A DNA stretch of 64,000 bases from Psammoneis japonica (GCA_008632985.1 QPGO01000020.1:682001-746000); one strand, 5' to 3'. Counted from the first letter of the stretch, positions 3,926 to 64,000 are shown. The notes: generated by a model not told the origin, from the letters alone. A program made the numbers and translations.

Positions 3926-4141
3926 GGTCTATCTATGACCTAGAGTTGTTGCTCTTTCGGGGTGTTTGGAAACGCAGTGGCATTTCGTCGTTTCATTTTT
4001 TTGCTTCAAGCGCAATCTGAACCTCGACGTCAACGCGATAGAGACGAAAGATCGCAACGTTGAAGTTCAAAATTCAGGTCTTACGTAGCCCTATCCCGTA
4101 GAAATGTACGGGAAGCACGTTTGGCGCGAAACGCACAAATA

Positions 4142-9605: not shown

Positions 9606-9709
9606 CTGTACATTGAAGGGTTTCCGCTAGTTGACCGTAGCACCATCACTCTTGTTACTACAGTAGGTGTTATATCATCTAAGAACCGCTGTCAAAACCG
9701 GCCTTCTTC

Positions 9710-15214: not shown

Positions 15215-15241
15215 GGAGAGAGAGAGAGAGAGAGAGAGAGA
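15215..15241. repeat. (GA)n microsatellite
   Basis: Direct reading of the GA run. Confidence 0.9.
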
Positions 15242-16225: not shown

Positions 16226-17060
16226 TTGCTCTTCTGTGCAAGCTCCCGCTGGCAACCTTCCGCGTGTGTTTCTACACGAGTTCTCATGCTGATGTCACCA
16301 TTCTCAGACGGCATTGATTTGGCTCCTACAAGCCCATTCTGTCCATGTTTGCCAATGGCACATTTTCATTGCAGCATGATGAGCAAAGTTCATCAGTGGA
16401 AAACGACGAGTGTCGCAGCCTGTTGGTTTGCACGCTGATTGTCATTTCTTGTAATTTCCAGTGCAAATTCCACACGGATCCGCAGATGCTGCTGACAATC
16501 TGCACGCCACTTCTCCGGCCTGCTTTTGTCCTTGCCAATTGGTCTTCAATGCTGCTTCCTTTTCTCACCATGCAGTCAAGTCCTTCACTCTTTGTGGTGC
16601 AAGTGCTGCTTCTGTTGCGGCCCTTTTCAGCAAGAATGTCAGTCATCCTTCAGAGTCATTTGACTGTCATCGATTTGCTGCTCCCATCGGTTTTTCTGTG
16701 CAAGATCTGGCATCATTGTCTCTGCATGTTGCCACTGACTGTCTGTGCTTCACTTCTCTGGACTGCTTTTGTCTTTGCCAATTGGTCTTCAACCCCATTT
16801 CTTTTGTCTGCCATGCAATCAAGTGCTTCACTTTTTGTGGTGAATGTGCTGTGCTTCTGTTGCGGCCCTGTTGAGCAAGAATGTGAGTCATCCCATGGCA
16901 CCATTTGCTTGTCTTCGGTTTGCTGCTCCCATCGGCTTTTCTGTGCAAGACCCAGCATTGTTTCTACATGCCATGAATGTTTTCTCCAACAACCTGCTTG
17001 TCTCACCTTCAAGGCTCCTTTTGTGGACCATGTTAAAAACCCATCCGAGTGCAATTGTCC
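16226..17060. repeat. Dispersed repeat copy 1 with internal ~240-bp tandem duplication
   Basis: Alignable by eye with 28425-29205; tgccaattggtcttcaa recurs at ~16533 and ~16776. Confidence 0.85.
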
Positions 17061-18404
17061 ATTGCAGCAGTTGTGGTGTGCCTTCTGTGGCTGTTGTCAA
17101 CAAGCACACAACAAATCCCTCATGTGGGTCATTCCTTTTCAGTCATCTTGGTGGGGTGTCACCTTCTGGCAATGCCCACTCCGTCCAATCCCATGAAAGC
17201 TCCTGCTGCACTCAACTGTGTGCTGGGGGTGTGGGTCAGCCGGTGCTGGCAAAGGAGTGACAGCACTTTAAACTCAGATCTGTTTTTTTTTACATTCAAC
17301 ATTTAGAACTCAGCTTTGAGGGTTTGAAAACTCAACAACAGACTGCCTTTGATGTTCCATGTTGGACAAAAAAGCACCAACGACAGTGGACTGTGTGGCC
17401 CTTGGAGTGCAAACAGATCCAGTCTTGCTTCTGCAATGAAGCACTTGATGATTTTAATGCCTTTGCCGATCGCATGTTTTCTGTTGGGTTTTCACAAAAA
17501 TGGCATGGTTGTGTTGGGAACATTTGGCAGGCATGCAGAGAGTTTTCAAGCCACACATTCAATTGTGAGTGCTGGAAACTCATTCCAGCAAGCATCGCTC
17601 CATGCAATTCTTGCAGTTCCATCTTGTCATGGCGTGACAATGCTCAAAATTTGCACATTCTTGTCAGCACCCAACGGACCCCTTGTTTTTCCAATGGATT
17701 GCTTGATGATTAAAAGGAATCTTTGTGTCGAATGTTTTCTGTTGGGGTTGAAAGCAATGTGCTGTCTTTGTCAGGATTTCAGGCATGCAAAAAGAGTTTT
17801 GAAGCCACTGGTTCAAATGCGTTCTGAAAGCTCGTGCCTTTGTGCTTGCAACGTGCAGCAGGCTTTGTTCGTTCAGTTTCAGCCCATCAAGCATTTTAAC
17901 TTTTTCTCTGGCAGGGCCCTGATTATCTTGCATTGCAGTTGCTGTGCGAACCAGTGCTTGCACCGCAACCAACGTCTTTTCAGCGTGAGATCCCCAATTG
18001 TCATGGATTTTGCAAAGGCGCCCCGATTGATTGTTCCCTCAGATCACATCTTGCCAAGGTTCGTACTGCATGGCGGTGGGCAAGCTAGGATCTTAACGCA
18101 TTGTACCTCGGTATGCACTTGACTGGTGGGGCTGCATTTGAAATGGACAATAGGAACAAGGTCCTAGTCTATCACTTTGCCTTATCGCACAGGTGAAAGG
18201 TAGCACCAGAAACAATGTTAGTTCATGCTCCAAACAGATTGAAGATTAGGATCAAAGTACATATCGCAAAGATAACATACTACGAAAAATAAAAAATGCT
18301 CCTGTTGACCAGCCTAAATAAAGCTCTATAGAGAGGGCATGTGCACACAAAGTCTATGGGACATAAAATGCCGCTTCGTCGTTGCTTCTAGATATTAGAA
18401 AGAC

Positions 18405-22339: not shown

Positions 22340-25300
22340 ACGTGGCAGGATTTTCTCAGAGTAGGTTCCTGAAGAGGAGCAGTATTCTTACTAGTCTATT
22401 AATGCATCATCCCATATTTCCACGAGACGTTCGTCTTCACCTATATCTTTTGTGCATGCAAAAGCGATAGCGGTAACAAGCATACAGTGATATATGCATG
22501 CCGGAGATACCTTTACAGATTGCCAATTTGCTGTGACACTGTTTGTGCCCATTAGCTTGACACCAGACATTCAGCAGCCTATGCCGTAATCTATTCTTTC
22601 AGGCCCATGTAGCACAGCCCCAATCCAGCAAACGCTTGTGCCGCTAGCTCCAACTTTACAAAAGTCGTTTCCTTCATTCCCATCGTGTTGGTCTGGCCAA
22701 AAAGACTCCCACAACACCAACCAATCCCAATCCTATAGCTGCAGCATCATTGGCCATCCCAGTGTCCCTCCGATAAATTGAAAATCTCATGGGCAACTTT
22801 CACCCAGATTGATGCCCAGGTGAAGCAAAAGAACATGGCTCTGGTGCCGTCATGTGCCTGTGGCGACAATTGTCGCACAGATGGTGGGTGCACATTCAAC
22901 ATTGGCCCCATGCTGTTTGTCAACATTGCAGTTGCTCTGCCAATGAGACTGACCATGCGCGCCCAAAACCAAAGGAAGAAGATGCAATGTCACCTGATGA
23001 CAGCACTTGTGCTGCGTTTTGTGTTTGAATTGCCTTCTGACTGTTGGCAGCATGTTTGACATCCATGGGTTCCATGCCTTTGCTGTCAAGAAATGTCTGT
23101 GTTTCTTCTTTCCCATCCAATTCACTCACAGTGTCCAAGTCTTTTCCTGCTCATGCTCTTTTGCTCTCATTGCTGCTTTTCCCTGTCACAACGCTCTCAT
23201 GATGGACAAGTTGCCAACACAACCCTCTTCTTGTGCCCAGCAACACACAGTGAACACCACCAAGAATTGCACTCCTTGATCTGTCAAATGCACATCCACA
23301 ACAAGCTGACCAATCCCCATGATGACAAAGCTCATGGGCAGCAACAACCAAACTGATGGCAAACCCTGTGCGCTGGAATGCAGCCATTCACAGCGCACAC
23401 AAAAACCATGGACAGCATTGGCACTTGAAGTGCAGTTGCACATCCCAATCTGCCTGATGCACTGCAATGAAAGTGGGAGCTGCAAGGACCACTGTGGTTG
23501 TTGCAATCATGGCGAGACTGGGGATGCTGCTCTTCCTTGCCATGACAAAGAAGGAGAGCCAAGTGACTGCTTGGGACATGTGCTCATCTTTTGTTGCTGC
23601 TTTGCAGCGCAGCTGTGCATGGTTCATGTGTTGCAACAATCATCACAGGAGCAGCTTCATCCAAAAAAGTGACATGGATGGGAGCCCAGGGCAAGAGTGA
23701 GTGGGGGGCCAAGGATCAAAGAGCAGCCGGGCAAATGTTGGGATGGCAATGGAAGGATCACAAACAGAAAAAGACAGGGAGCAGGAAGAAGGTGCAGGCA
23801 GATGGCAACCAGAGGAAGGGTGGTGTGATGCACAAGGCAAGATCTGGCAACAGTCCATGTCAGAGACAGACCAGTGCAGCAGAAGAAGCAGAGGCAGCGT
23901 GAGAGGTGGTGAGCCTTGAGGGCACCAGGAGGTCAGAGTCAAAGGGCAGGGTGCAGGAATGCAAGGCAGCTTTGGCAGCAACAGGGTGTGCTGAAGAGAG
24001 AAGGCAGGAGGTCAGGGTGGCACAGAGAAACTTGGAGGGGTCCGGTTGGAAAAAGGGGTCAGCAGCATGGTGGAACAAATGACAAGTGGCATTGAAACAA
24101 CCATCTTTCTCAACCCAGCAGAGCACCACAAGTGGCAACCAGTGCTGCAATTGCAGATGGAGATGGCATGGCCACAACCCACAACAAAGAAAGAAACCAA
24201 CAAAGGGGTGGCTGCAGAGCTTGACAGAGAGCGTTGAAGAAGGGTGAGTGCCATTTTGAGGGTCAGGGGTCATGGCCACAGGGGTGGTTGCATTGGAAAG
24301 TGCAGAAGGGGTCGCAGAAGGAAGGGCAGCAACAAAGGGGGCAGGAGGCAGGCCAGCAATTTAAATTGCATCAAAAGGCTCATGGCGCAAAGGGCATGGA
24401 AAAGTGTGGGAGGAGAAGGAGAGGGGAACAACAAAGGATGGATGAGAATGGAGGGCAAGGAGGACGGCCCAACAATGTCAGTGGAGAGCATGGGCAGAGT
24501 GAAGAAAGAAGGGCATTGTGGCAGGTCAGGAGGCCACTTTGGGAGCTGCTGCATGGCGCCACTGCACCCAAAGAAAGGAGATGCCACCACTGCAGTCATT
24601 GTTGTCAGTCACTTGAAGTTCATTTCCACAAGTTTTGCAACTGTTGCAAGTTCTTTTTTTCACCTTGCAAGTTGCAAAGGGCAAAGTGTGAAGTGCACGG
24701 GGGGTGGCACTGTGCACTCAATTGCAACCGGCCATCAATTTTCTTCACAAGGTTGCTTTCAAACTGGCTTGCAAAGTTGCTTCACCATGCTCCATCCTTT
24801 GCAGACAGCAAGTTCAAAAATTGTGAGTTCATTGCTGTTCTGAGTGCGCTTTGTGGCTGACACTGAATCAACCTGCACGGAAAATCCAACAGTTTTAGAT
24901 TTCAAAACACATCAAGCAAAAGAAAGCTCTGCCATCCACCATGGGAAAAAAGCATGCTGCACTCCAAGACATCAAATCAAGCAAGACCACACAGCAGCAA
25001 GCACCCGTGCTTGACACTTTGCACCTTGGTTGTGTGAAACGCACATGTTGCAAGAGGCAGGTCTGGATTTTTGCAGTGAATCCAAGAGCAAACTGCTGTG
25101 TCTTTGTGGTGGACAGCTGCAATCCAGTCTGCAGACAGAGAAAAAAAGCAACAAACAAGTGGCTGTTGGACATCAGATGTGGTTGCTTGTGCTTCCCTTT
25201 TGTGTTGGTGTTGGCACAGCTCTGTCACCCAAAATGATCTTTCTCAACTGCCAGCACAAAATGAAGTGTTGATTTGAGTTCCTCAAGAAGAGCCGGTCAC

Positions 25301-25959
25301 TCTTGTGTGAGGTCTGATGACTCAACGTGACAGTCTGTGAATTGGTGGTTGGGAGACATGTGCAACTTTGGCACTCACCTCTTCTCACATGTTTTTGCAG
25401 ACCATGACATGACAAGTGGGATGCTGTCCAGTTGCCACGAGTGCTTCAAACAAAGCACAACAATCCAAGAAGTCCAAGGCTTTGTGCAAGACACACAACA
25501 TCACATGCTTTGACCCGCTGGAACAGCATCTGAATTTTCTCTCTGGTGTGGCCAAGTTGCACCATTTGGAGCTTGTTCTTGTCTCTGCCATGGCGTGTGT
25601 GATGCAGCAAGTGCATGGAAAAGCAAACAGCGAATTTGGTTTTGGGGGGCTTTCTGGTCACACACCAGTGTCTTGAAATCAAGCACAGTTCTCTTGCCAC
25701 CAGCAACAAAGAAATGAAGTTGTTTGAGCAAATGCCTCCATCAATGTGGCAAAAGAATCTGTTGCCAGTTGTTTGCTTGATTGACAAGTTGCTTCCCACA
25801 ACAAATGTGCGCAACATGTTTCCGTGCTTGACAAGAGCATGACTTGTCAGTGATTGAAATTTTCACATGTGTGCTGATTGCATCTACAGATCTTCAACAC
25901 ACACAATTGTTGGCTGTGTTTCTTGGCAGTCATTGAGTCTCAAGCAAATCTTTTTTGCT

Positions 25960-27500
25960 TGTTTTTTAAGCAACATGTGTGGCTCATTCTGTCCACATTT
26001 TCAACACTTGTTGAGAACAGTTTCATTTGTTTTTTTCCCTTCCATTTGTCAGATCTCTTCCTTTGTTTGAGTTGCCTGTGTGGCTCACATGAGAGTTTTC
26101 TCTGTGTGCTGCAGTGTGCTGGTTCAATCTGTTGTGACAAAAGGAAGTGAGCTCAGCAACATGTTTCTGAAAGGCACTCCAGCAAGCTTTGCGCAATGCA
26201 TCAATTGACAAGACTCTTGAAACACAGCACCTCATGAGACATTGCTCTTTGACAAAGCCATCATCATCATTGCAGAGCTGATTTCCAGTGCTTGAAGCCC
26301 AGCAGAGAGAGCTGCCTGCCCCACTCACCAAGTCCTGGATCAAACCCTCCTTTCTTGGCCAGCTGGCGCTGACTGTGCTTGTCGATTCTTGCTGCTGCTC
26401 ATGCTCCATGTTCTTCCATGAAGCAGATGCTTCCTGGACCATTGCAAAGTGCTCAGCTTGAAGCTGCACATTGTTCCATGCGACAGAAGAGTTCCAGCTG
26501 GCTGTCTTTGTTCATTTTTTTGCTGGCAGCATTTTCTGCAGTTTGGCCAATCTTGGAGGCATTGGCTGCTTGAAATTGCCTCTTTGCAGACAATGTGAAC
26601 AATTGAAGCCATGCTCTGATTTGATTTGGTTGGAGCTGGCATGTTCACAGGATCTGATGTCCAGCTGCTTGCGGCTCCTCAGGAACTTGCACAAATTTTG
26701 GACACCTGACAACTGCCCAGGACACTCGCTGCAAGTCACAGAGGATGGCATTCAAGCCATTGATTGAAACTTTTGAATGAATTGACGCAGACAAATTGAG
26801 TCAATTTGATTGTCACAGATGATTGTGACAAGCAAGGATTGCCGTGCTTGCTTTTGTTTGTGACATGGAAAACAAAACCCAAGAAAGAGTGCATGTGCGC
26901 CTCTCTCTGTCACCATCCAAGTCATGGGTGTCTGCAGAATGCACTCCACTTTGGACCTTCTTGCTGCAGTGTCCAACACAGGAGAAACAAAGAAATTGAA
27001 TGAAAAGTTCAGATGACAATCAAAGGCATTGAATGAAGATGCCTTTCTTTGGGGCACACACCTCGTCCTCATGACCACAATGATGTTTTAACACACTCTC
27101 CAGGCATTCCTCACACTTGGTGCCAAATGTTGCCACCGCTGCAACCAATCCCATGGCGGACTTGAGTTGTGTTGTGTGCCTGCATTTTGGAAAGAAAAAG
27201 AGTTGATTCCATGTGTTGTGAGCATTTTTGTCAAAAACAAGTGCGGCAATGTCCACGCGGATGTGACCCAAAAGCATTGTGTTGAGTCACCTGTGCAGCT
27301 CATTTTGTTCTCATTTTGAACTCTTGTTGAGAGCTGCTTCATTTGTTTCCCCCCACCCCTCTGTTTGTCAGATCTCTGCCTTTGTGTTCAAGTTGCCTCT
27401 GTGGCTCATTTTGTCCTCATTTTTGACCTTCAGGAACAGCTTCATTTGTTTTCTTTTCTTTCCATTTTGTCAGCCCTCTGCCTTTGCTTTGCTCTGTCTC
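25960..27500. repeat. Degenerate ~110-bp direct repeats at ~25960-26090 and ~27290-27500 flanking a 1.2-kb decayed segment
   Basis: Shared cttgttgaga...ttcatttgttt...tttgtcagatctct...gttgcct.tgtggctca. Confidence 0.65.
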
Positions 27501-27621
27501 TGCTGTGCCTGTCCTCATTTCATGCTGGATGCTGCACAACTCATCCTCCAATCTGACACTCACCAACAACAATGGTGCGCCCCTGTCACAATTCACTTTG
27601 TTGTCCTGGCTGCTGGATGTG

Positions 27622-27645
27622 CAACAACAACAACAACAACAACAA

Positions 27646-27696
<51 letters not shown>
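27622..27696. repeat. Compound microsatellite (CAA)n(CAG)n(CAA)n
   Basis: Direct reading. Confidence 0.95.
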
Positions 27697-27699
<3 letters not shown>

Positions 27700-28424
27700 T
27701 GCTCTCCAAAAACATTTTCAAAAGCATCTTCAGCATTTTTCTTTCTCCATTTTGGCCTGAACCCTGATGACAACTTTGGGAAGCACACCCCCAGTGCTGC
27801 AGGAAGAGAAGTGCTGGGAACAGCAGGAAGAGCAGCTCAGATTTAAACTTGCAAAGGCATGGTTTTTGCATCTCATGAAGTGAGCAATGGCACCACTGCT
27901 TGGAAAGCCAGCCACTGTTGCTGCAAATGAAGAGACAATGGCCAGAGTGTGTCAGCCATGCATCCTCAGTTCCAGGGTTCATGGGGAGTCTTCCTCTGCT
28001 CTGGACAGAACAAGACTTGTCAGACAGAATTGGAAGGATTGCATCTCCAATTGGACATTCTGGTGAAGCAAAATCAATGGGAATCCATTTGTGAAGAAAT
28101 TTTTGAGAGGGCACCCTTCTTTGGAGAGCAAACATCATTGAACACTTTTCTCTGGGCAAACTTGTTGATTGACGGTCCTTGTTGTTGTGCAAGTGATGCA
28201 CAGTTCAAAGACAAGGAAGAGCAGAAAGTGGAGCAACCACCTGCACTGGCTCCATTGGCAGACATGCTGAGTCACAAGTCTGGGTTGGATCCAACAACAC
28301 GCAACTGGAGAGTTGAGTGAGACACAAAAGCCTTTGCAGTCCAAGTTGCGGAGGGTGGGCCAACTGTGGGATCAGAAGCGTGCCAGTCTTGTGGCCTCCA
28401 TTTGAACTCTCACTGCCTGCCCCA

Positions 28425-29205
28425 TTGCTCTTCTGTGCAAGCACCCGCTGGCAACCCCTTGTGTGTTTCTGTGCGTGTTCTCACACTGACGATGTTGCCA
28501 TCATCAGACAGTGTTGGCTTGGCTCCAACAGGCCCATTCTGTCCATGTTCACCAGTGGTGCACCCTTGTTGCAGCATGACAAGCAAAGTTCATCAGTGCA
28601 AAATGACAAGTGTTCTGCACAGGCTCCATTGCAAATTCTGCGTGGATCCACAGATGCTGCTGATGATCTGCGTGTCACTTCCCCAGCATGCTTTTGTCCT
28701 TGCCAATCAGTCCTCAACACCACCTCCTTTCCTTGCCATGCAATCAAGTCCTTCACTCTTTGTGGTGCAAGCGCCACTTCTGTGTTGGCCCTTTTCAGCA
28801 AGAACATTGGCTGTCTTTTGGAGTCATTTGATTGTTGTCCATTTGCCACTCCCGTTGGTTTTTCTGTGCAAGATCTGGTGTTGTTTCTACATGTCACCAC
28901 TGACTGTCTGTGTGTCACTTCTCTGGACCATTTTCATCCTTGCCAGTTGGTCTTCAACCACATTCCTTTTCTCCACCATGCAATCAAGTGCTTTGCTCTT
29001 TGTGGTGAATGCGCCACTTCTGTTGCGGCCCTTTTCAGCAAGAATGCAAGTCATCCTGTGGCGCCATTTGATTGTCTTTGGTTTGCTGCTCCCATCAGCT
29101 TCATTGTTTCTGTGTGCCACAAATGATTTCTCTGATGACCTGCTTGTCTCACCTTTAAGGCTCCTTTTGTGGACCATTTTAAAAACCTGTTTGAGTGCAA
29201 TTGTC
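28425..29205. repeat. Dispersed repeat copy 2 (homologous to 16226-17060)
   Basis: Starts tgctcttctgtgcaagc.cccgctggcaacc as at 16226 and has the same internal ~240-bp duplication. Confidence 0.85.
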
Positions 29206-31500
29206 TGCTTTTTTGCCCGCTTGATTCAATTGTTCTTGCTCAACTTTCTTGAGCCTCTTCCACACACAATCCACACTTCTAAGATTTGTCTGTTGGCCGC
29301 TCACAAAGCTTCATTCTCTCTGAAGCCCTGTGTGCTGATCAAAGCTTTCAGGATCAAGATTGAGCAGATGTGATGACTCTAGTGCACCACACGTGAAACA
29401 GATGGAAACTTCGGCCACGGACACAAAAGCCAGTTGGCAGGGCCCTTTTGATGAAGAACATGATTGGCAGAACTCAGGAGCTGCTCATTTGTGCCAAAGG
29501 GCTCCAAATCAACATCCTGGAGTTCATCGTCATTTTGTTGTCAACTTGTGCACGGCACTTGTCCTCTGCAAGTGGCGTGCCTTCTTGCTGTTTGGAGGCA
29601 GGATCTTGGGCACAAGGGTGGGTGACAAAAGTGCACTCCATTGGAACAAAAGTCACTTGAGCAACCATGTCATGATGAAAACACCAAATTGTCCTCCTGA
29701 GGGTGCAAGGCAGCACTGCTGATTGCCAACAATGCACCCAAGATGAGCTCATTGACATGTGTTTCCATTTGCGGCACAACCTTGCTCATGAACAAATCAC
29801 CTGAAAAGCCAGTGTGCCAGACTCAGACTTGCTTGATGAGTTGAGTTTAAAGATTGAGTTGCAAAGCCTTCCCATCCATGAAAATTCAAAATGGGCTTGG
29901 CCACCTCTCTTGCTTTTGGATGCAGGCCAGACTTGCCAAGACATGAAAGGTTGAAAAAGGGCAGGCATTTCTTGAGTGATCATGTTGCTGGAGCCACCTG
30001 AAAAATGGCTTGGTTGTGCCACAAGCCCTTCTTGCTGAAGTGCCACCTGCACAGCTGGGGTGCAGCGCTGGTGCTGTTGTGTGCCTGTGCTTCTCATGGG
30101 GCAATGAAAGACTCAAAAATGAATCATGCAGGGCCAGTTTGGTCTCAATGCTTGCACTCAGAAGCAAAATTGGGTTGATGATGGACCTCTGATCATGGAT
30201 TCTCAAGCACCGCTGGCAAAGTGGCTGAGCTCTGTTCCTGAGATCATGTGCGTGCTTCCTGCTTGGCAAGCTTTGAGCTTGGTCTTGTTGATGAGCAGTG
30301 CTCAAATGTGCCGTGCATTCAATGAGGGGTTTTGCACCATCCTGCTGCTGAAAACAATGAGCTTGAAATTTCTGTCATTCTTGCTCTTTGTCAAGTTTGT
30401 GACAGCCAAATGGTGGCGGGTGTGCTGAAGAAAGCAGTGCTGCTGGAGTCCACACTGCTCTGCAGGACACTGCAACTGAGGTGCTGGAAAGCATCTGAAA
30501 CAAGACCCAGACAAATCGTGATTTCTTGGCGGGACAATGATGACACACCTTGCAAGCAAGTTCCAAAACAAGCAAAGCAAATGCATTTCTGTGCTTCCCA
30601 CATTGTCCATGTTTTTGGCCAAGAAGAACCAAGAATTGAGTGGCCGGCCAGCTCCTCCTCCAACTGATTAAAAAGCATGAGAAATGATGCATTTCTTCAT
30701 GCAAGAACCACATTTGTTTTGGCTTGAAAGAATTCACACATGAGCTCTGGTGCATCAGGAACAAAGAGCTCTCCAAACAGCTTGTGAGCATGAAATGCAG
30801 CAAGTGCCATGTTCTTGCGGATGTGCTGACTGAGTTGTTTGAGACATGCCTTGATGGAGAAGGGACATGAGCAGACCAAGAATCTCCTCATCCCTCACCT
30901 TGCAAAGAAAATGAAGCATGCTGTCATGCATGCATTCATTCTGGTGGCTCAAACAGCCCACAAGTGCGCCCCACATCGTGAAGGAGGAGAAGCAGCCGCC
31001 AAAGAACACACACTTTTCATCTTGCTTGCACTGGTTCTTGGCACTTGGGCACAACCTCCCAGCAAAGCATGCATGCTGAACCAAATCACATGATTGAGTT
31101 TGGAGCTGAGCAAACAAGTCAACGCAACTTTGTGCTGTGTGCTCCACATGTTGTTGTTCTTGCAGAGATGTGGCACTTCTTTCTCTTGCTTTTCTTTTGC
31201 GTGTCATGCAAATGAGCTGGAAGAAGAATGCTTCTTGTTTGTGGGTGTTCCTTGGATAGATTAAGCTTTAGGTCTTGGCGGCTCATTGATGGGATGTGAT
31301 GCTGCTGTGGTTGGGTTGCGGCGCCGTGCTGCTACAGTCAGAAAAAAAAATAGCGAGACGGACGAACGACTGAGTCTGTCAGCTGGCGGGCTTTGCGAAT
31401 ACAGCTTGCCCGCGCGCAATTCGCGTGCAATTATTTGCCACGTCATCGAGTGTCACCTTTTTTTCTCATTTTCTCACAATCCTCGCAAATAAGTGACACC

Positions 31501-35268: not shown

Positions 35269-35328
35269 AACTCTACACTTGCTCACGTGCCCACCAACAA
35301 CTCGAGCGACACTGAACACTGTGAGACC

Positions 35329-35820
35329 ATGAGCGAAGCAGAAGCGACCGCAAGCAACAGCAAATGCAAGGTGTCCACTGCTCCACTGGATGGCCGTGTC
35401 TGTGATTTGTGCAGAATGTCCAGCCATTGGATCCAACAGTGTTCCAAAAAGAAGCGAAAAAAGAAAAAGACATCACATTGCTGTGCCTGGCGTCAACCCT
35501 TCTGCAGTGGACATTGCATGTGCAAGAGAGTTGCAAAAGATCAGGCCTCCCAAGTGCTTTTGTGGAGAAACGTCCTGGCTGAAAAAGGCCAGGAAAAGTG
35601 AGGTTGGCAGTGAGCAATCGCTGGCCAACGGTGTGTGCTTTTTCTTCTGCGCCAAGAAATGAGACGACGTGACCAAGTGCCGATTTGCAAGACCTGTGCA
35701 AGACGAGATCATGCCAAAGAATCAGCAACTGGTGTGTGCTTTCTTTGCCAAGAATGGGAAATGCAAAAAGGGCGACAATTGTGTGTTTGGCTGCAATGGG
35801 AGCTTGAGGACGCCAACAGC
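35329..35820 (+). pseudogene. Zinc-finger gene remnant (CCHC knuckle + GRF-like finger + CCCH finger)
   Basis: CDLC...HWIQQC; after a frameshift, CFCG...FFFCAKK*...CRF; then CAFFAKNGKCKKGDNC. One frameshift and one in-frame TGA; no Tyr. Confidence 0.7.
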
Positions 35821-38199
35821 CCACCATGAGAAAGATGATGAAATGCAAAGTGGCAGTGGCCACAGTGGCAATGAGAAGCAAGCAGGCATTGATGACAGCA
35901 GTGTTGCCAAAAAAGAGGTGGCCAGCAATCGCACAGTGGCACCAGCAGCACTGCCAGTGGCAGCTGCAGTGGCAGTGCGTTCTCTTCATCAAGCGCAGAC
36001 ACTGAGGACGATGATCAGCAGCTCCAGTCATTTCCTGTTCCCAAGCTGATTCAATTGCTGCAAGCCTTCCTGTCAAATTGTTGTGACATTCTTTGCTCAA
36101 GTGGGCTGTTGTGGTCTGATGATTTCTTCATTGACGTCGATCCTTGTTGCTCATCTTGGACAGAAGTTGACCCACATGCCCTTCTTTTTCTTTTCTCTGG
36201 TTTCGGCTGCTCCGTGTAAAGCAGGATGCTTGCTGCCTTCCGTGGAACCATGGGAACAGAGCGGTTGAGAGTGGCCACCTGCACGCACTTGCAAGAACTG
36301 ACAACACACACCTTTTGGAAGCGGTGGTTGCAATGTTTTGCAATGAAAGCCAGTTAAATCACGGAGGCCACGGTGATCAACCATTGGAGAAAGGCAACTA
36401 AAAGCCACGTTGACACCCGGCGCACTTTCAATCTCACTGTTTTAAAATCAAAATGTGGCTGCAATGAAGACAAAAAGAAGTGAGTGCGCGGGGTCATTGA
36501 GGCACAAGCACGGCACTTGCCAACTGTGGAGCTGCAGTCATCAGCACGAACTGTTCCGCTGGCGCTCCTTTCTTTGCTGCACACATGTGAGTGGCAGTCA
36601 TCCTTCTGCAGAGAGGGTGAGTTGCAGCCCAACACTGCAAGACTGCTTGGCCATTGTCAAATTTTGGTCACTTGAAGCCAGAGCGCCAATTGGAGTTGCA
36701 TCTTGGGTCTGCTAGAAGCAATCTGATGCCTTGCAAGAGAGGAGAGTGCTTGAGGTGCACTGCGAGCATCCAACCTTCAAAATGGCCTTTTCACTTGCCA
36801 CATGTCTTGTTAAATTGATGAAACTGAAGCTGTGGTGCAGATGCATCAACTCATGCTCTCAAGAAACTTGAGTGATTTGAGTGAAAGGTGCTTGGTGGAG
36901 CTTTTGGAGAGGTGCAAGCTTCCAACGATCACATTCATCAATCAAGCTTTGAGCAAGATTCACTCAATGAATGTTCCGTGAGTGCAAGTGATCTGGCACT
37001 GGAGCAACGGGAACCTTTTTTGTGCAGGTTGTCCTTGCGCCAGCAATGCTTTGCAAGCAACATGGGTTGTCAAAGCTTGGAACACTGTTGTTGCTGCAAC
37101 CAACCAAGCAGCGGATCCTTGAGACAGCATTGCAGATTGTGGTGCTTTGTGAGCAGTGCAGTGCTCAATGGGGCTGGAACTTGCATGCATGGCTGCTGCC
37201 ACATGTTGGGCAGCATTGCAACAGCTCATCAAAGCTGTGGCAGGTTTTTTCTTTCTGGGCACAGCTGACCTTGTTGGGCTTCATAAATCTTGAGTGCAGA
37301 TTCAGCTGCTGATCTCAATGCCATCTTGGCGCAATGAGCTGCAGAATCTTGGAGCACTCATGCAATTCAACAATTGAGGATTGAAGCTTTGCATTGTTGT
37401 TTTCACCTTGGCTTTGTCTTCACTGAATGATGCAGTGTTGAGGCTGCATTTTGTGCAAGGCAACCCATGATCCTGAATGTCTTGTGACACAGACACCTGT
37501 TGGAGGTCAAGGGCACCATTCCAACGGAACAAGGGAGAGTGCAGAAATGCCAGCGGCGCTGTGTCCTTCAACCCTTTTGACTCAACAGAGCTTGAGCAGT
37601 TGCAAGAATTCTCTTGCTGCATGACAAACCACTTGGAAGACTCTGATGACTGTGCTCTTGGGGCGGGGACTTGGGAAGACCACAGCAAGCTCTTTGAGCA
37701 CTTCTGCTGTCTGCATGCAGCCACAATGAACTGAGGTTGATGGGGCATCAATCCTTGTTAAAAGCCAAAGCCTTGCACCCCAATTGTGGTTGGATGCCTT
37801 GTGAGCCAGCTTGTGCAGCTGACCAAGATCACATCCTAGAGAAGACAAACAAAGTGCTTGGATTCAGATGGCTTGAATGGCAACCATGAGATGGAGGGAC
37901 AACAAGAGAAACACCATCACCAACATGAACCAGCTGTGGAAGACCTTGCTGACAAACAGCTCCTCCTTCTTGCATGCCTCCATTCACATCGTTTGTCCAA
38001 ACAGAGATCGAAGCTGAAAAAAGAGTGCAAGTTTTAAAGTGCAACTCAGTGAGATGGTCACAATTGCAAACACAACAAAACAGATCTTCAAACTCAGCTG
38101 ATGTGACAGGCCGGCAACACACAGCAGTGTCAAACCTGCAGGAGATCAGACATGATGCTCAGCGAGCAACTCAAACTCAAGCAGTCTGAACCACCTTGC

Positions 38200-39800
38200 A
38201 ACCTTCACCAAAAAGGCTGCCCTTTGGGGTGTCAAGCACACCGTCTCAGTCCACAACATCATGTTGAATGATTTTGGGGCTGCAGGAGGTGGCAGCAGAT
38301 TTTTCCAATGAACTTGCTTCATGTGCTGCTGTGGTGCGCCATTGTCAGCGGGTTGGTGTCAGGAGGTGGCAAACCTGGTGCAGGCTGAATGGGAGCAGAT
38401 GGGGTGGTGACATTCATGGTGGCAAAATTGTGCATGTGAGCGGGGCATTGGAGTGTGGGTTGGGGGCCCAGGTGAAACAGATCCTTGTGTCAATGGACGA
38501 GCGTTTTGCAGGGAAAAATGGGAGGAAGCCTGGTGGTGCTTTTGTGGCAACATGTCAGAAGGTTGAGCAGAGACAAGCAAAAGGGCCAAGGGTGTGGCAG
38601 AGCAACCAGACGGTGTCACAAATTGAGCTGGACAGAGGTGTTTGTGGGTGCGTGAGCAGGAGAAGGTGTGGTCACTGCTGACATCCGGGGTGTTTCCACA
38701 AGGGTGTGCAGTCATGACATGGGATGGTTGGATCACAGGTGAACAGAGTCTTTGTTGGAGGAGGATGGTGAAGGGTTGGGAAGGGAGATGGTGACAGTTG
38801 TGCCACAGTCTGGAGAGGGAGTGCAGGGCAAGACTTGTGTGAGCAGAGAGGAAGGATGGCAAGACATGGTGGAGAGATGGGTTGTGGCGCAGGTTGTGAA
38901 TGGCTTGTTTTGCATGGGAGTGGTCCAGGCATTGGGACAGGCCTCAGAGGTTGTGAGAGAGCTTCGTCAGTGAGAGGGCAGAGAGACAGAGGGAGGAGCA
39001 GCACCTTGGAGAACACAGGTTTTGGATGGGTTGAGGTGGATGCCACATGGGGGGAGCCAAGTTCGTAGAAGCATTGAAGAACCAGGGGAGGAGGGCAATG
39101 GGCAGATGCATTTGTGAAAGTGTGTTGTCAATGTGGGAGCCAGTGGTGGATGGTGGGGAGCAGTGTGAAAGGCAGGTGGGTGCTGGCTTCCTTGTTGAGT
39201 TGGGCGAAGACAAGTGCAAGGGCAAGGCTCTGGCAATTGCAGGGCTTTGGGGGCAACCCTGGGCAATGGCTTCATGTTGGAGGAAGGGTTGCCATTGGCT
39301 GGCATCGTGGCAGTGCCAGCAAGAGTTGGGTTTCTTGGTGTGCACAAGAAGAGGTCAAGAAGGCAAGGGGAGTGGTTGGAAAACAGCGCTGGTGAACAGG
39401 AAGAAGGCTCGAGATGGGGCTGGGTTGTCAAAGGAGAGATGGCACTCGATGCTGCTGGCAAAGGTGGAGTGAACGAGACAGTCCATGACGCCTTTGATGC
39501 CTGCTCCAAATTGACCAGTGGGGAGAAAGTGTGTTTTGGCAAAGGCAGGGCCAAGGACGGCGATGGTGAAACCACCCCGACAGGGCAGAGCTTGGTTGGA
39601 GAGGTCGGAGGGGTCTTTTTTTGTAAGGCGGCGAAGCAGTTTGAGGTGAGGATGGGTTGGATGGGATGAGACAAGACAGGAGAATTTTAAAGGAGGGAAG
39701 GTGTGGGTGGGCAAACAGCTGGGCGTTTTGGTGTTGGTGAGGGCACAGGATTTGAGGAGGTCGGTGGAGTCAGTGTGTTCAATCCAAGGTGCGCCTACCT
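38200..39800 (-). mobile_element. Heavily decayed non-LTR retrotransposon reverse transcriptase fragment
   Basis: Across frames: KKDPSDL, HFLPTGQFGAGIKG, QHEAIAQGCPQSP (QGxPLSP), and SHIDNT at 39124-39135 (YIDD equivalent). Confidence 0.7.
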
Positions 39801-46429: not shown

Positions 46430-46659
46430 TCTTTGCGGCACGTACTAAATTTTGCACAAATTGTAATGCTTTTGCCGTTGTTGATGTTGAGAGAGAGAGA
46501 GAGAGGAAAAGAGCTAAAAAAGTGACAACGAGAATTTTCTGTGGCTGATGATAAGGCATTGAATCGTGTGAAGAGACAGGTGGTGTATCGGTCGACGCTC
46601 AGACAGTCTGTTCTTCGCACGCAATCAAATAGAAATCCTTGTGCGCGGATTTTCGCGCG

Positions 46660-49646
46660 ACTTAGACACTCCCCATGTTTTGAAATGTCTTGTTGATTGG
46701 CCAAACACGTGCTTGCTCATGCTACAAACATGACCAACCGTGTGCCAACTGTGTTTGCTTCCACAAATGTAAGAACAAGGAAGGACTCCCAACTTGCGGT
46801 GCAAGTGACTGGAGCTCGGACAAGAAGACACGGAAACTTCCAACCTCCCCGGAAGCTAGTCCACTTCAACCGAAAATTTGTCAATTCATCAATGACACCC
46901 CTGATGACACCGACAAACAAAACAAAAACAAGGCCAACACCGAAGCCAACAAAGAGAACATCGTGCCCAATGATCAGAGGACGGATGCTGACGAGGGCAG
47001 AAACGATGAGGAGGCCACTGCCGCCACAAGGGACAGTGAGCGGTCGGAGGACAGATTGGGCTCGGAGGGAGCCATCATTCCGTCAATTGACCACACCAGC
47101 AACACACCCAATGACTTCAATTCAGACGCAGAAAGGATCATCCACGAGACACGCGGCGAGACATGTCACCTCAGTGACGGTGCTGAACTGGATGGTGGGA
47201 CACTGGACGACAAAACGTGGCAAGAGTGTTGGCGCCGGCCAATGCCCTGTCCATCGCAACGATGTGACGTGCCAAATGGCTCGGTTGGCAAACGATTCAT
47301 TGCAACGTTGGCAGAACTGCTGGATGGAGTCACGAGGCGGAAGTGGAACTCGGAAAGATTCGCAGCACATCAGATGGTCATTTTACAGCGAGACCACAAC
47401 GCAAAAGGAGCCAAAGATGTCAGAACTTTGTTCAGCACGCGCATGGACGATTGGGACGCGGGCAAGCACAAAATGCTGGTCCAATCAACGGAGCGGCCAC
47501 TTGAAGCAAACCTAAAAACCATTCAAAGGGAGGGAACGCCTGAGCAGCGCGCCAAGACATTCAACAGAATGGTGCTCCGAGAGTGCCTGCGAGGAGCGGT
47601 TGGGTGCATCTCTGAACGTGAAAAAGGTGGGATTCTATCGCCGGATGACATCGATGAAAAGACTGATGACACAGTGTTTGAAGTCCTTCAGAGGAAACAT
47701 CCGAGCCAAAGGATCCCGGACGAAGACCACTTTCACAAATTCAGCGAACCACCTGAACTCCAGGACATGCTCAGTTGTGAGCATTGGAGCATCCTGATCA
47801 TCCGTGGAAACTTTGGAACTGCCTTCATCTTGTTCAGCAAGGAAGGCGTCACGCAGGGCGATCCACTTGGTGTGGCAGCATGCGGGCCAGGCCTTCTTCC
47901 ACCAGTCCGTGAAATGAGTGAGCGTTTCAAAGACGCACTCACGCCATGGTGCGCCGACGACTCCGCAGCAGCAGGAAATTTCGTGACACTGCGAGAATTC
48001 TTCCTCAGTCTCCAAGCCGAAGGCCCCAAACATGGCTGCCACCCCACCGACAACTCCAAGAACATCCCAGCAGTCCCAGAGCGCAACCTGGAAAATGCTG
48101 GAACGCACTTTGGAGATCCAGGCTTTACCATCAAGTCTGGCAGCCGTTGCCTTGGAGGCTTCATTGGAGAGTCCGACGCGCGCGACCAATGGCTGGCGGA
48201 AAAAGCCAAGTCATGGACCTCGGTCGTCCAGGGACTCGCCAAAATCGCGATTCATCACCCTCAGACCACCTGCGCCGGTCTGCAGAAGTCCCCACAACAC
48301 CAGCGGCAATGCACCCAACATGTGGCAAAGGACTGCGGCGAATCGTTTGCCGACGTAGAACATGCAATGCAGCGCAATTTCCTGCCGGCTTTGACAGGTG
48401 AGACCCCAGCAGACGACGTCCCGAGACTGGCCCCATCCGCCCTCCCAATCAAATTTTTGGGACTGTCCATCCCTCGTCCAACTGAGTCCGCAGCTCACAA
48501 CTGCAAAGTGAGTGCTCTCACGTGTTCCCACGTGATCGACTCACTCCGCGGCTGCTCCCAGTTCTCATCCGCAGTCCACAAGGACACCGTGCCCGAAGTG
48601 AAACAAGAAGCAGCCGATCGAAAGGTTGCAGCACACGGGGAGACCCTCAAAATGATCCTCAGGACCCTGCCCGACCTCCAGGCCAGAGCTGTCAAGCACA
48701 GCACCAAGACAGGCGCGTGGCTCTCAGTGCACCCTTCGACGCTGAATGGCGCGGAACTCTCATGCCAAGAGTTCCGTGACGCGCTTTTCCTGTGGCATGG
48801 CAGTGCTCCACCGGACCTCCTGGAGCACTGCGATGGATGTGGATGCAAACTCACAATGAGCCACGCCCTTCAGTGCAAGAAGGGCGGCCCAGTCATCTCA
48901 CGACACAATGAAGTCCGTGACAACCCAGGCAACCCAATGGGCAAGGCTTGCAAACCTTCCCGCGCACACGATGAACCTCCAATCAACCCCGCTGGTCGCA
49001 GCGCAGGAAGCTCAAGCACCCCCACTGGCTCCCCAGGAAACACTGGCTCCAACAAGTCCAAGGATGACGATCGCGGCGACCTTCTCGGCATGTGATTCTG
49101 GGATGGAAGGACAGACATGGTGACGGATGTTCGCGTTCCCGACACGGATTCGAAGCCACACCTGTCCAAAACACCAGAGGATGTCCTGGCAATGCACGAA
49201 CAGGAGAAAAAGCGCAAGCACCTCAAGCCCTGTCTTGAGCAACACCGTCATTTCACACCCTTCGCAGTGTCATGCGACGGACTCTTTGGCAAAGAAGCCA
49301 AGGCAATGCTCCGCAAGATGGCCTCGAGGCTGTCAGACAAATGGCAAAAGCCATGCTCTGAAGCATGTGGCTGCGTCAATGTGAGAATGAGCACTGCCAT
49401 GGTCCGGGCGACTCACCGTTGCCTCCGGGGATCCCGCATTCCCGCCTCTCACATCAGCTCCAGACGACCCCAGTGGGAAGACGGCGCTGGTCTGTCCCTG
49501 TGCAGACACTGAATGACCCCGCCCAACCGACTCGCACCCTTCCAGACAACATGCCAACCAACCATCCACCTGCAACATCGATGTCGTGCCCAGAAGTTGA
49601 CAAAAACCCATCACCACCCCGAAAACGGCACCACAACTATTTCAAA
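46660..49646 (+). mobile_element. CRE-like non-LTR retrotransposon (RT + C-terminal zinc knuckle/restriction-like endonuclease), internally deleted and hypermutated
   Basis: Single frame 46690-49512 with one TGA at 49093. Motifs: EGVTQGDPL, W(C)ADD, LGGFIG, HALQCKKGG..SRHNEVRD, RGDLL...FW...DVRV.DTD, EQEKKRKH, FTPFAVS.DG, CLRGSR. The first RT subdomains are missing near 47770. Candidate 9-bp TSD TTTCGCGCG at 46651 and 49647. Confidence 0.9.
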
Positions 49647-61048: not shown

Positions 61049-61251
61049 TACAACAGCAGTAGAAGGGGGCATCCACGTTGACGACCTCCAAACAAACGAA
61101 ACAACAGCAAGGCTACAGTTTAGCTGGTATAATACCGTACCGTAGTCTACCGGTACCGCATGCACATGCCGGTCTTTTTGTTCTTTCGGCGCTTCGCTGA
61201 AAAATACCGACAGCCGACAGTGCGAGGGGTTGGACAGACGACCTCGCGCTA

Positions 61252-64000
61252 TTTTGTTTGGAGAGCTCGTGAGCCAAGACGACGTCATTCTTTCTGGGTT
61301 GGCACTGCCAGTGACAACAAACTAATTCCCACAATCCACAGATTGAATGACTGATTTCAGACCAACCATGCAAGCTTGAATGTGTCTCAACAGAGGTGCC
61401 AAAGCCAGCCATCACACCGTTGTTTGCCACACCCATGTGTCGTCTCATTTTCTTGCTCAGCGAGTCCAGTGCTGGGGCGGCGATGCAGCGTTGGTGAAAC
61501 ACTGGCTGCCCTGCTGCTGGCTTCTTCTTCTTCTTCTTCTTCTTCTTGCACACACACACAAGTGCAAGCACACACACCTTTGTCTGCCCCCCCAGCACAA
61601 TCAACAGCTTGTTGTCGAGCTTCATTTTTTTGGCGCATGTCAGTGAACCCATGTGGAGCCCACCTGCTCATTTCCGTGCAGCTCCATGATGCAATCTTGA
61701 AGGTCCGTCAAACAGCACACATGAGCTCAGAAGAAATCACAGTGGCACAGCAGCAAGGGATGAGGCTGATTTGAAGCCTTTCCCAACTCTCTCGATGTTG
61801 ACTGCAGCGCTGCTTTCACACGCGACAATGTTGCAAGATTTTGGCTTGGCAAAACCCACAATTTTTATTTTCATCATCACACTCCTTCAACAGCTGTTGT
61901 TTGATTGTGGCTCTGGCTCATGAAAAGAGGAGTTCAGCGGCGCTGTCATTGCTCACACATTTCTCAATGCAGAGACTCCAGCCATCCTTTCTGAAGCAAT
62001 CCAAAGGATCCAACTGTCCTTCTGAAGCAGCACAAAGGCTGCACAACCATCCTTTTGCACCTTTTGCAGCATCACAAAGGCTCCCAGCCACCACAGCTGG
62101 CAGCAACACAAAGACTCCAACCACCACAGGAGGTGGCAGCAGCACCAAGACTTCAACCATCTTTTCTGAAGCAGCAGTGCAAAGGCTCCAACAGCCCTTC
62201 TGCAATGGCACAAAGGCTGCAACCATCCTTCTGCAGAGCAGTGCAAAGGCTCCAACAGCCCTTCTGCAGTGGTGTGCAAAGGCTGCAACCATCCTTCTGC
62301 AGCAGCACAGATGCTCCTCCCAACCACCACAGCCAAGTGGCAGCAATGCAAAGACTCCAACCACCACAGCCAAGTGGCGGCAGTGCAAAGGCTCCAAGAA
62401 CTGTCCTGTCTGAAGCACCAGAAAGGCTCCAACACTGTCCTTCTGCAGCAGTGCAAAGGGTCCAAACTGTTGCAAGTGGCAGCAGCACAAAAGCTCCAGC
62501 AACCATCACAAGTGGCATCAGTGCAAAGGCACCGTGTGCCATTCACACGTCCACAGAAACAAAGCCACAAGAACAATTTGACAGCTCAACCACCGTCGTT
62601 CACATGTCAACAAAACTCCTGCAGTTTGTGCAAGATGGGCCACTCTCCTGAGTCATCATCATGAAAAAGCTGTTGGCATCTCATGCACATTTTTGACATT
62701 GAGCACAGTGTGGAGACAGGTGCCGCACGGCAGGTTGCCCTGTTTTTGTGCACTGCCTGAGTCGTTGGTGCTCGTTGAAATGATGACCTGCCTTGTGCTG
62801 TTTGTCTGAAGAGCTTGCATCAGCCAAAATGTCATTTTTTCTGGGTTGGCACTGCTGGCAGTGACAACAAACTAATTCCCGCAATCCACAGATTGAGTGG
62901 CCAGTTTTGGACTAACCAAGGAAGTGCCACAAAGCCAACCAGCACATCACAGCACTGTCTGGAGAGACAAGACACCCCCACGCACCAGCCACATCATTCA
63001 CATGTCATCATTTTCTTGCTCAGTGAGTCTTTTGGGGTGACAGTGCATTGTTGGCAAAATGCTGGCTCTGCCACTGGCTTCATTGTGGGCAGTGTGCACA
63101 CCCCCACAAACACACATCTTTCAGCCCAAAACAACCCTCCACATGAAAGGGCAGCTTTTTCACATCAGCAAAACAAAAAAATTGACAGGACTTTGTGCAA
63201 CACCGGCTGGCAACACCCAGCAGACACAACTGGGGGCAACAAGGAGGCAACACTTGGCACAGGATTTGTTGTGTTCTTTTTTTTGCTGCAACCACAGTGC
63301 CACACTGTGCAGCATTGGCAAAGGACTTTTGCACACTCAGAGTGCACAGCTCATCAGCAAAAGCAGCAACCCCCATCTTTGAGTTTGCGCTGGCCACCAT
63401 CAACACAAAAGGAGACAAACATTTGTGCTCTTTCTGGCACACTGCATCAAGAGTGAAAAGGTTGCAGCTCAAAGCAGCAAGCTCTTCATTTGTCAGCAAG
63501 CACAAAAAGGGAGAACTCACAAGGCTTGAAAACATGGAACAAAGATCAAATGGAGCCAGAAGTTGGCTCTTTTCTGCACCCTTGAGCCCAACAACTGCTG
63601 AAGCAGTGTTTTCACCACACAAAGTGAAGAACTTGGTTGGCCAATGGAAAGAAGGGGGTCATCAAGAGCCATTGAAAATGGACAGAAACAGTTTGGAAAT
63701 GTTGCAAAAGATGGTCTTTGACAGTGACATGATCTGCGGTGTGCACAGAATTTGCGCTGGGTGCTGTGTAGAAAACTTGCTGAATTGAGAGAAAATGGCT
63801 GGAAAGGATGACAAGCTGCCAAGCCAGAAGAAGTTGCTGCCAGTTGTTTGCTGCTAAAAAATGTTGCTTGTTGGGCTGAATGATGCAGTGCCATTGGTGG
63901 AGTTGCTCAAAATGGGCTGGTGAGAGGACCCAGCAAAATGGCTCACACACCTTTGGAGAAGGAAGGAGGGCATCAGCGCCAGAGGGTGTGCAGAAACACA
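61252..64000. other. TpA-erased block 6 with direct repeats (~61190-61620 and ~62740-63160)
   Basis: TA nearly absent; ctgggttggcactg...cagtgacaacaaactaattccc.caatccacagattga occurs at ~61294 and ~62841. Confidence 0.85.
61965..62530. repeat. Degenerate ~30-bp minisatellite (ccttctgcagcagtgcaaaggctccaac-like)
   Basis: caaaggctcc/caaagactcc cores recur more than 15 times. Confidence 0.85.

Follow-up and report, generated by a model that had tools for sequence, protein, structure and literature searches.

How a mobile element can come to lose nearly every TpA dinucleotide while keeping its CpG and almost all of its reading frame is the question raised by an element at positions 46660..49646 (+) of a 64,000-nucleotide stretch of DNA from the diatom Psammoneis japonica (GCA_008632985.1, QPGO01000020.1:682001-746000), which we call the window and from whose first letter all positions are counted. 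This 64-kb window alternates between DNA of normal composition and six sharply bounded blocks, 2.7-8.5 kb each and nearly devoid of TpA, one of which is the element. An earlier note, made from the sequence alone, had proposed that TpA is lost quickly and CpG slowly, by two independent processes. Our best explanation of the whole—to which we give a probability of about 0.7—is targeted TpA hypermutation of diatom mobile DNA followed by a slower loss of CpG, with the element as a young copy that carries very few frame-breaking lesions.

Across seven background segments the observed-to-expected ratio (o/e) was 0.50-0.71 for TA and 0.87-1.03 for CG. The host genes between the blocks are of normal composition, and the gaps between successive TA dinucleotides reach 2085 bp, marking the block edges sharply. 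Within its 2987 bp (G+C 0.554) the element holds 10 TA (o/e 0.071) and 177 CG (o/e 0.778), with CpA and TpG at o/e 1.30 and 1.63. The five other TA-free blocks are as follows:

4141..9609, block B1: old, TA-free and CpG-poor (TA o/e 0.030, CG o/e 0.199), with open reading frames (ORFs) that lack a Pfam domain
13302..18064, block B2: old, TA-free and CpG-poor, with a repeat at 16226-17059 in common with B3
22775..31257, block B3: old, TA-free and CpG-poor, with the repeat in common with B2 at 28425-29205
35275..39624, block B4: old and TA-free, with intermediate CpG across its first 1.4 kb; multicopy in a DNA sequencing run
61324..64000, block B6: old, TA-free and CpG-poor, continuing beyond the end of the window

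These five have TA o/e values of 0.023-0.053 and CG o/e values of 0.177-0.358, which bears out the earlier description of a TA-depleted but CpG-rich element among blocks lacking both dinucleotides. CpA and TpG are enriched in all six blocks (CA/TG o/e 1.3-1.8). Every CpG-poor stretch of the window is TA-free, whereas the converse fails, as the TA-free element keeps its CpG.

The element is a dead copy of an R2-like retrotransposon of the kind without long terminal repeats (non-LTR). Its protein has 158 database relatives of ~960-1200 amino acids (aa), mostly from metagenome contigs of ~4 kb, with best identities of 44-48%; the named sources are the diatoms Cyclotella atomus and Fragilaria crotonensis. 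When the window was searched by tblastn with 30 homologues, all 59 matches fell within 46660-49646. A family profile run against the PDB found R2 retrotransposon proteins as its best match (E=3.5e-8), a distant match confined to the reverse transcriptase (RT), and homologue P0007 passed the Pfam cut-off for RVT_1 (PF00078) with 31.0 bits against 29.6, two more homologues lying just under it. The element’s own ORF matched no Pfam family, because it has CADD at the YADD column and has lost the upstream RT motifs. The features on which the argument draws are these:

46651..46659: left 9-bp direct repeat, a putative target-site duplication, TTTCGCGCG
46660..46857 (+): incompletely converted 5′ end (4 TA in 198 bp vs 6 in the other 2789 bp of the element, Fisher p=0.003)
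46684..49092 (+): open frame of 803 codons, with a Cys-rich N-terminal part, an RT remnant and a C-terminal CCHC/endonuclease-like part
47767..47781 (+): junction of an in-frame deletion of ~175 aa that removed RT motifs present in all homologues
47950..47961 (+): RT motif C, CADD for YADD, with TGC from TAC/TAT (residue 423, where all 37 homologues have Y)
49093..49095 (+): internal stop TGA at codon 804, where the family consensus is Gly
49096..49509 (+): continuation of the frame to the family C-terminus, residues 366-942 reaching the last homologue residue
49647..49655: right 9-bp direct repeat, TTTCGCGCG

Like R2, the element’s family has a single long ORF with a central RT and a C-terminal region of Cys/His and endonuclease-like character, together with a target-site duplication and a depth profile of 5′ truncation. 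Unlike R2, it is linked to those proteins by a distant match, no ribosomal DNA target was found, and the present copy lacks the N-terminal RT motifs. In the C-terminal part, the element retains the invariant columns C716, D717, G718, C719, H727, C731, R740 and H741 and a tail rich in D/E, a combination that we take to be the look of an R2-type restriction-like endonuclease; this region lay outside every Pfam and PDB match obtained. Depth of k-mer contigs from the DNA run climbs along the element towards its 3′ end (268, 498, 814, 1508, 1662), compared with ~26-32 for single-copy pieces, and this is the profile of a multicopy, 5′-truncating non-LTR family, whose other copies amount by depth to about 10-50 genome equivalents. 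Within the window itself, self-BLAST revealed no second copy of the element in either nucleotide or purine/pyrimidine space. Shuffling the two 101-nt end windows produced a shared word of at least 9 nt in 42 of 2000 trials, which sets the chance expectation for the direct repeats.

The description of the frame as almost intact also holds, with a large deletion besides. Compared with 37 homologues, the frame at 46684-49509 (+) runs for 943 codons with one internal TGA and no frameshift; the ~175-aa in-frame deletion, which takes out the N-terminal motifs of the RT, appears as an alignment of element residues 7-362 and 366-942 with residues 16-337 and 518-1094 of P0007. The stop is neither of TA type nor of CG type, given the Gly in the family, and would be a G>T change if the ancestral codon was GGA. 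An open frame gauges only damage other than TA conversion, because a sequence without TA has no TAA or TAG and because TA>TG/CA can cause no frameshift and no new in-frame stop (only TAA>TGA is possible). By that gauge, TGA occurs three times in this frame of the element vs 16 and 36 times in the other two plus-strand frames, and in the other TA-free blocks stretches free of stops are 36 codons long on average and 350 at most. An unselected copy with no frameshift and one transversion stop would, very roughly, have undergone about a percent of ordinary divergence.

The missing TpA of the element were lost by mutation, as its conserved residues testify. At the 11 columns where at least 60% of the homologues have Tyr, the element has kept none: seven have become Cys (TGY), two His (CAY), one Arg (CGC) and one Phe, and Tyr makes up 0.1% of the frame vs 2.1% in the homologues. 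Other conserved residues are kept at 67-92%, except for Ile, with 5 kept of 12, and Met, with neither of 2 kept, and three of the seven Ile changes are of TA type. Across 390 conserved columns, the 104 departures from the consensus comprise 30 single TA steps, nine CG>TG/CA changes and 65 others, with the TA steps falling on both strands (17 TA>CA, 13 TA>TG). All nine Leu>Pro changes gave CCA and all five Val>Ala changes GCA. The element matches the family consensus at 73% of positions, or 81% if TA-type changes are excused, within a range of 69-94% among homologues. The 79 metagenomic relatives that we collected have median o/e values of 0.51 for TpA (minimum 0.11), 0.88 for CpG, 1.12 for CpA and 1.14 for TpG, with a median G+C of 0.53; measured against the family, the element is short of some 50-86 TA, a loss of 84-90%. 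These data support TpA loss as a mutational process in its own right and not, as the earlier note had already argued, a compositional by-product of CpG decay.

The CpG of the element are, by comparison, essentially intact. When o/e is calculated on the pre-conversion G+C of ~0.53, which allows for the gain in G+C, CpG stands at 0.84-0.88 (over 46651-49646), at the level of the family median. Loss has nevertheless begun, in the form of the nine CG-type changes at conserved columns and of two sites that read CA in the element where all other family contigs covering them (5 and 7) have CG.

Rates could be compared among the 79 relatives and the 41 close pairs that they form, which served in place of transposable-element copies from the host genome. 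One pair, L043 (177-3710) and L045 (145-1904), is 94.6% identical over 1760 bp, and both members are partly depleted of TA (TA o/e 0.30-0.31, CpG 0.88). The 95 positions at which they differ can be assigned to 20 TA<>TG/CA events (10 vs 10 by product), 12 TG<>CA events, eight CG<>TG/CA events and 43 others, so that 0.68 of TA sites, 0.07 of CG sites and 0.024 of other sites have changed. In six other pairs (of the 41) at a similar divergence of ‘other’ sites (0.017-0.032), 0.03-0.17 of TA sites and 4-18% of CG sites had changed. L043 still has an uninterrupted ORF of 1178 aa in which 10 of 13 conserved Tyr columns have become Cys or His. TA conversion is thus the faster process, and the proposal that it runs its course before frameshifts accumulate agrees both with the rates in this pair and with the element, which has no frameshift after losing most of its TA.

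In L043 the outer 400-600 bp have a normal TA density, and the TA that survive in L043/L045 are mostly in CTAG, TTAA and CTAA. A relative on a 12.9-kb contig from a microbial-mat metagenome (L041:2500-5470) has an uninterrupted ORF of 971 aa; its TA o/e is 0.13-0.29, compared with 0.55-0.67 in the flank, its CpG is 0.42-0.66 and TG exceeds CA, and it is possibly a copy from a different organism that has been converted in part. The relative poorest in TA (L061:322-1017; TA o/e 0.11, CpG 0.61) covers seven conserved Tyr columns, of which four are His, two Cys, one Lys and none Tyr.

The TA that survive define the target. Among the 62 left in the blocks of the window, 24 lie in TTAA, vs 46 of 1274 in the background; 41 lie in YTAR (Y, pyrimidine; R, purine), vs 201 of 1274; and none lies in RTAY, vs 418 of 1274 (Fisher p=1e-17 and 5e-11 for the window motif counts). 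In L043/L045 a pyrimidine follows the converted A in 31 of 44 events, while a purine follows in 27 of 30 cases, both strands counted, where the two copies have retained TA (Fisher p=2e-7). Window survivors and L043/L045 contexts together identify 5′-TAY, on the strand of the mutated A, as the favoured target. The tRNA substrates of TadA/ADAT enzymes present their target in a U33-A34 context, and a T before and a C or T after the target A recalls that context.

Several observations weigh against two successive and separate processes. The TA-poor, CpG-rich state is represented by one element only in the window; its retained CpG might reflect escape from methylation and not youth, and its TA-free state could have arisen before integration or in a converted source copy. 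L043 and L045 may be alleles or paralogues. L035 and L047 are CpG-poor with normal TA, and such relatives, of which there are several, mean that CpG loss without TA loss does exist elsewhere. The residual levels of TA and CG covary from one old block to the next (Spearman 0.97, n=5).

The order in which TpA loss precedes CpG loss therefore stands as likely, given the element and the nesting of CpG-poor within TA-free DNA, albeit from few cases. On independence the outcome was mixed. Joint scaling of the two depletions across copies, which the earlier note had named as counting against it, was found across the five old blocks and not across 68 relatives of at least 1.4 kb, where TA and CG o/e gave a Spearman coefficient of 0.19 (p=0.12, not significant); the latter lends weak support to uncoupling, since those copies come from many hosts. 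Within the old blocks, TA and CG residuals of 41 sub-windows were uncorrelated (rho -0.02). As the residuals covary between blocks but not within them, both seem to depend on how old or how exposed a block is. The idea of two independent clocks thus survives as regards their separate rates and fails as regards full independence: the TA and CG clocks run at different rates, yet are not unrelated.

Escape from methylation deserves most attention among the rival explanations. If the element kept its CpG because it was unmethylated, by virtue of its position or its family, and not because it is young, it would be uninformative as to which process came first. The 3-kb element is inserted at a CG-rich site with a host gene on either side, and every CpG of the duplicated target TTTCGCGCG is kept in both copies. 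The old blocks could be assigned to no family, so a difference in class is possible. In Phaeodactylum tricornutum, another diatom and one whose transposable elements are known to be methylated, loss of DNMT5a is reported to remove methylation and to de-repress young transposable elements (PMC9998398), which suggests that methylation is selective in diatoms. However, CpG decay has already begun in the element; the intact frame—no frameshift and one stop in 943 codons—is an independent proxy of age that indicates youth; and L043/L045 reproduce the same order of rates in a different setting. We therefore consider escape unlikely, though with a real share of the probability, and prefer youth as the reason for the retained CpG.

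A close precedent exists for the TpA process itself. In the chlorarachniophyte Bigelowiella natans, a mutation-accumulation study covered two integrated viral regions as resident DNA (Mettrop et al., bioRxiv 10.64898/2026.01.13.699255). The preprint’s main text reports A>G or T>C changes for 230 of 231 mutations, each of them located at TpA, at a rate of ~6e-7 per site per generation vs 3.5e-10 elsewhere; it also describes 124 TpA-poor clusters enriched in RT and DDE domains and proposes an ADAT2-like enzyme. The order of rates that we find agrees with those measured rates. As far as that text goes, the resemblance extends to A:T>G:C changes confined to TpA with TpG or CpA as products, to a restriction to foreign or mobile DNA, where clusters of kilobase size are poor in TpA and rich in CpA and TpG, to the targeting of RT genes and to a rate far above background. 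The differences are that B. natans is a rhizarian whereas the present host is a diatom and thus a stramenopile; that conversion here is near saturation (TA o/e 0.02-0.07), compared with 0.45 in the region of B. natans derived from a nucleocytoplasmic large DNA virus (NCLDV); and that the targets here are a retrotransposon and repeat blocks and not viral regions, with no events observed de novo. The main text of the preprint mentions neither CpG nor diatoms, nor any context beyond TpA, although its supplementary tables may hold flanking bases. It was the only publication that we found on TpA depletion or hypermutation in diatoms or transposons. The phenomenon is thus already in print for a chlorarachniophyte, and what is new here is the diatom host, the saturated retrotransposon targets, the TAY/TTAA rule and the comparison with CpG decay.

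Comparison of copies shows that conversion acts on each copy separately and on both strands. The repeat shared by B2 and B3, which was the sole link between blocks in self-BLAST, aligns over 778 bases at 81% identity, with 125 transitions and 21 transversions; in purine/pyrimidine space identity rises to 94%. Its differences include 36 TG<>CA double differences, compared with at most five for any other double-transition pair, and at 19 sites CG is kept in one copy only. Block B4 and its other copies in the DNA run likewise differ as TG<>CA at 35735/6 and 36852/3, and some sites that are TG or CA in B4 are still TA or CG elsewhere (judged on the best-supported 40 of 811 differences). Such pairs are explained by an ancestral palindromic TA (or CG) that was converted independently, on different strands in different copies.

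This bears on a second rival explanation, in which TA>TG/CA took place before integration—by editing of RNA or complementary DNA (cDNA), or in a converted source copy mobilised in trans—so that the TA clock would not measure residence time. The TA-free zone of the element does lie strictly inside its 9-bp direct repeats, the last TA inside being at 49638 and the first outside at 49663, 17 bp past the 3′ end. In the sense strand TG stands above CA (the 1.63 and 1.30 given above); the family is multicopy, and an RT-deleted form could move only in trans. Editing of the ADAR type favours a 5′ U, according to the discussion in the B. natans preprint. Against this, both strands of the element were changed, L043/L045 divide evenly by product, and RNA-only editing would have given TG as the sole product. 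A strand-symmetric TAY rule applied to the sense-strand contexts of the family predicts a TG share of 0.59 and so accounts for much of the TG excess; a transcription-coupled or RNA-level cause of that excess was accordingly dropped as needless. The TG<>CA differences in B2/B3 and in other copies mean conversion copy by copy, and the process described in B. natans acted on resident DNA. An origin before integration is in our judgement distinctly unlikely, and conversion of resident DNA remains the better account.

The edges of the blocks carry further information on the two processes. The stretches 4142-4400 (10 CG, o/e 0.56) and 35280-35700 (16 CG, o/e 0.58) contain no TA, so the claim that block edges keep CpG while lacking TA was right about TA, whereas their CpG is intermediate. 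Pooled over nine block edges, CpG o/e falls with depth from 0.44 in the first 200 bp to 0.31, 0.24 and then 0.20-0.22 (first 400 bp vs more than 1000 bp deep, binomial p = 8e-5), while TA o/e is flat at 0.017-0.039. The further suggestion that TpA loss reaches slightly beyond CpG loss is on weaker ground: it is partly circular, because the edges were set by the last TA, and the 5′ end of the element shows the opposite, conversion staying within the direct repeats and being weaker in the first 198 bp. It would be simpler to suppose that CpG loss, the slow process, is less active close to the ends of elements. At block B6, a direct repeat of ~300 bp (61241-61524 and 62790-63081, 84% identical in purine/pyrimidine space) begins ~80 bp beyond the TA-free zone; its two copies may be the terminal repeats of an element that was spared conversion at its extremities, and the alignment of the edge at 61230-61530 with the internal stretch at 62780-63090 is patchy.

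A third rival explanation dispenses with 5-methylcytosine and invokes one deaminase, quick on A at TpA and slow on C at CpG. Both kinds of change do yield CA/TG, and both targets are palindromes of the YR type; the CpG-poor DNA of the window is always TA-free, residuals correlate across the old blocks, and the B. natans preprint cites ADAT2 enzymes for which A and C in DNA are both substrates. Yet the hypermutations described in that preprint fell at TpA in 230 of 231 cases, with none reported at CpG. The profile of TA is flat right up to the block edge, whereas CpG tapers over ~400-600 bp, and the flanking rules differ: TA survives in TTAA and YTAR, while CG survives best in GCGC, which is enriched 2.4x among residual CpG of the old blocks (contexts flanked by A/T are depleted to 0.58-0.72x). 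The change at CG in L043/L045 (0.07) is also not above that in pairs of similar divergence (0.12-0.18). A single enzyme is thus improbable to the point that we give it little weight, and two processes are preferred. That the pattern is not mutational at all—but native composition, the effect of selection against TA, or an error of sequencing or assembly—is scarcely credible, for although TA is scarce throughout the window (background o/e 0.50-0.71), conserved residues were lost in a TA-specific manner (YADD to CADD, no Tyr kept), TA is higher in all 79 relatives, and k-mer contigs from the DNA run match TA-free stretches of B4 with no differences.

The mechanism that we favour would begin with a hypermutation of repeated or mobile DNA in which A:T becomes G:C at TpA, with TpG or CpA as the product depending on the strand hit. 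It would prefer 5′-TAY and spare TTAA, treat each copy separately and most likely as resident DNA, halt at or just within element ends, and far outpace both ordinary substitution and CpG decay. The element at 46660-49646 would be past this fast phase with its CpG loss barely started, whereas in the five older blocks a second, slower process would have taken 60-80% of the CpG. This second process is probably deamination of 5-methylcytosine, acting more weakly in the outer few hundred bases, and the agent of the first may be an adenine deaminase of the TadA/ADAT kind.

Several known systems provide points of comparison. Repeat-induced point mutation (RIP), known from Neurospora and other fungi, is a defence against repeats that makes transitions in a dinucleotide context, copy by copy, with fairly sharp borders and with products that are cytosine-methylated. 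RIP, however, makes C>T changes mostly at CpA, raises TpA and lowers G+C; here the reverse is seen, with TpA destroyed (o/e 0.02-0.07), CA/TG raised to o/e 1.3-1.8 in the blocks and G+C moving from 0.53 to 0.55, and RIP was rejected on this opposite direction. RIP also acts on duplicated DNA, whereas a tandem duplication of ~290 bp in host DNA of the window (43056-43349 and 43346-43623) keeps its TA. The two copies are 96% identical, share eight TA and show no TG<>CA differences; three of their 11 differences are TG vs TA. Duplication by itself is thus no trigger here. APOBEC3 deaminates C on minus-strand cDNA before integration and leaves strand-specific G>A; it resembles the present case in hypermutating retroelements, as a nucleic-acid deaminase that recognises a short motif, but here both strands carry changes at TpA, as A>G and T>C, and cDNA editing of the APOBEC type was set aside. 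ADAR is alike in making A>G changes and, per the B. natans preprint, in favouring a 5′ U/T. It differs in acting on RNA, so that a retro-copied trace would be sense A>G only; here both strands are changed and a 3′ pyrimidine is favoured, and since sense T>C accounts for 17 of the element’s 30 TA-type changes, RNA hyper-editing of the ADAR type was also rejected.

Methylated transposons undergo CpG decay through deamination of 5-methylcytosine. The old blocks resemble this in their CG>TG/CA changes, in a CpG o/e of 0.18-0.36 and in having lost AT-flanked CpG most; the element differs in having been spared such decay.

We tentatively suggest, as a possibility that falls short of even odds, that diatoms, like Bigelowiella, have a defence at the level of DNA that rewrites 5′-TAY to TGY (RTA to RCA on the other strand) before indels accumulate, probably through a TadA/ADAT-like deaminase. 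If so, TpA defence would be old and widespread in the supergroup of stramenopiles, alveolates and Rhizaria (SAR), a mirror image of fungal RIP, and TpA hypermutation would extend to a main group of primary producers in the ocean. The TAY preference and the survival of TTAA would give a biochemical signature by which to judge candidate deaminases, and a fast TA clock paired with a slow CpG clock could date insertions without recourse to LTR divergence. There is also a consequence for annotation: converted elements lose all their Tyr codons and evade domain searches, while their long frames may be called as genes.

The remaining content of the old blocks is sparse. Among 127 ORFs of at least 90 aa in the five blocks, the only match to pass a curated Pfam cut-off was zf-CCCH, in an ORF at 35663-36046 (+) of block B4 (22.1 bits against 20.5), which may be a chance match in converted sequence enriched for Cys/His. 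Block B4, with its intermediate CpG at one end, may be a composite of parts of different age. An assembly gap of 317 N occupies 55085-55401.

In the stretches of normal composition, host genes are long and have few introns. One encodes a light-harvesting protein whose signal peptide closes with ‘ATAF’, a motif typical of diatom plastid targeting. Another encodes a protein resembling glutathione S-transferase (GST), whose best named relatives, at 62-66% identity, come from Cylindrotheca, Thalassiosira, Chaetoceros and a Bacillariaceae metagenome-assembled genome; none of its database matches exceeds 75% identity.

The element sits between a minus-strand ORF that ends near 46444 and a recA-like gene downstream (PF00154, E=4e-80). 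Its duplicated target resembles a promoter motif of the E2F type, and through insertion upstream of the recA-like gene a promoter element may have been split or duplicated. A further sequencing run, X2, has next to no cover over 46944-49599 or over most of B4, which says nothing on expression. Although it is labelled ‘DNA?’, run X2 appears to be spliced RNA, given the GT..AG joints in the recA-like gene: its contigs there skip 96 bases (50314-50411, with GT..AG ends) and 87 bases (50858-50946), and these two stretches are introns.

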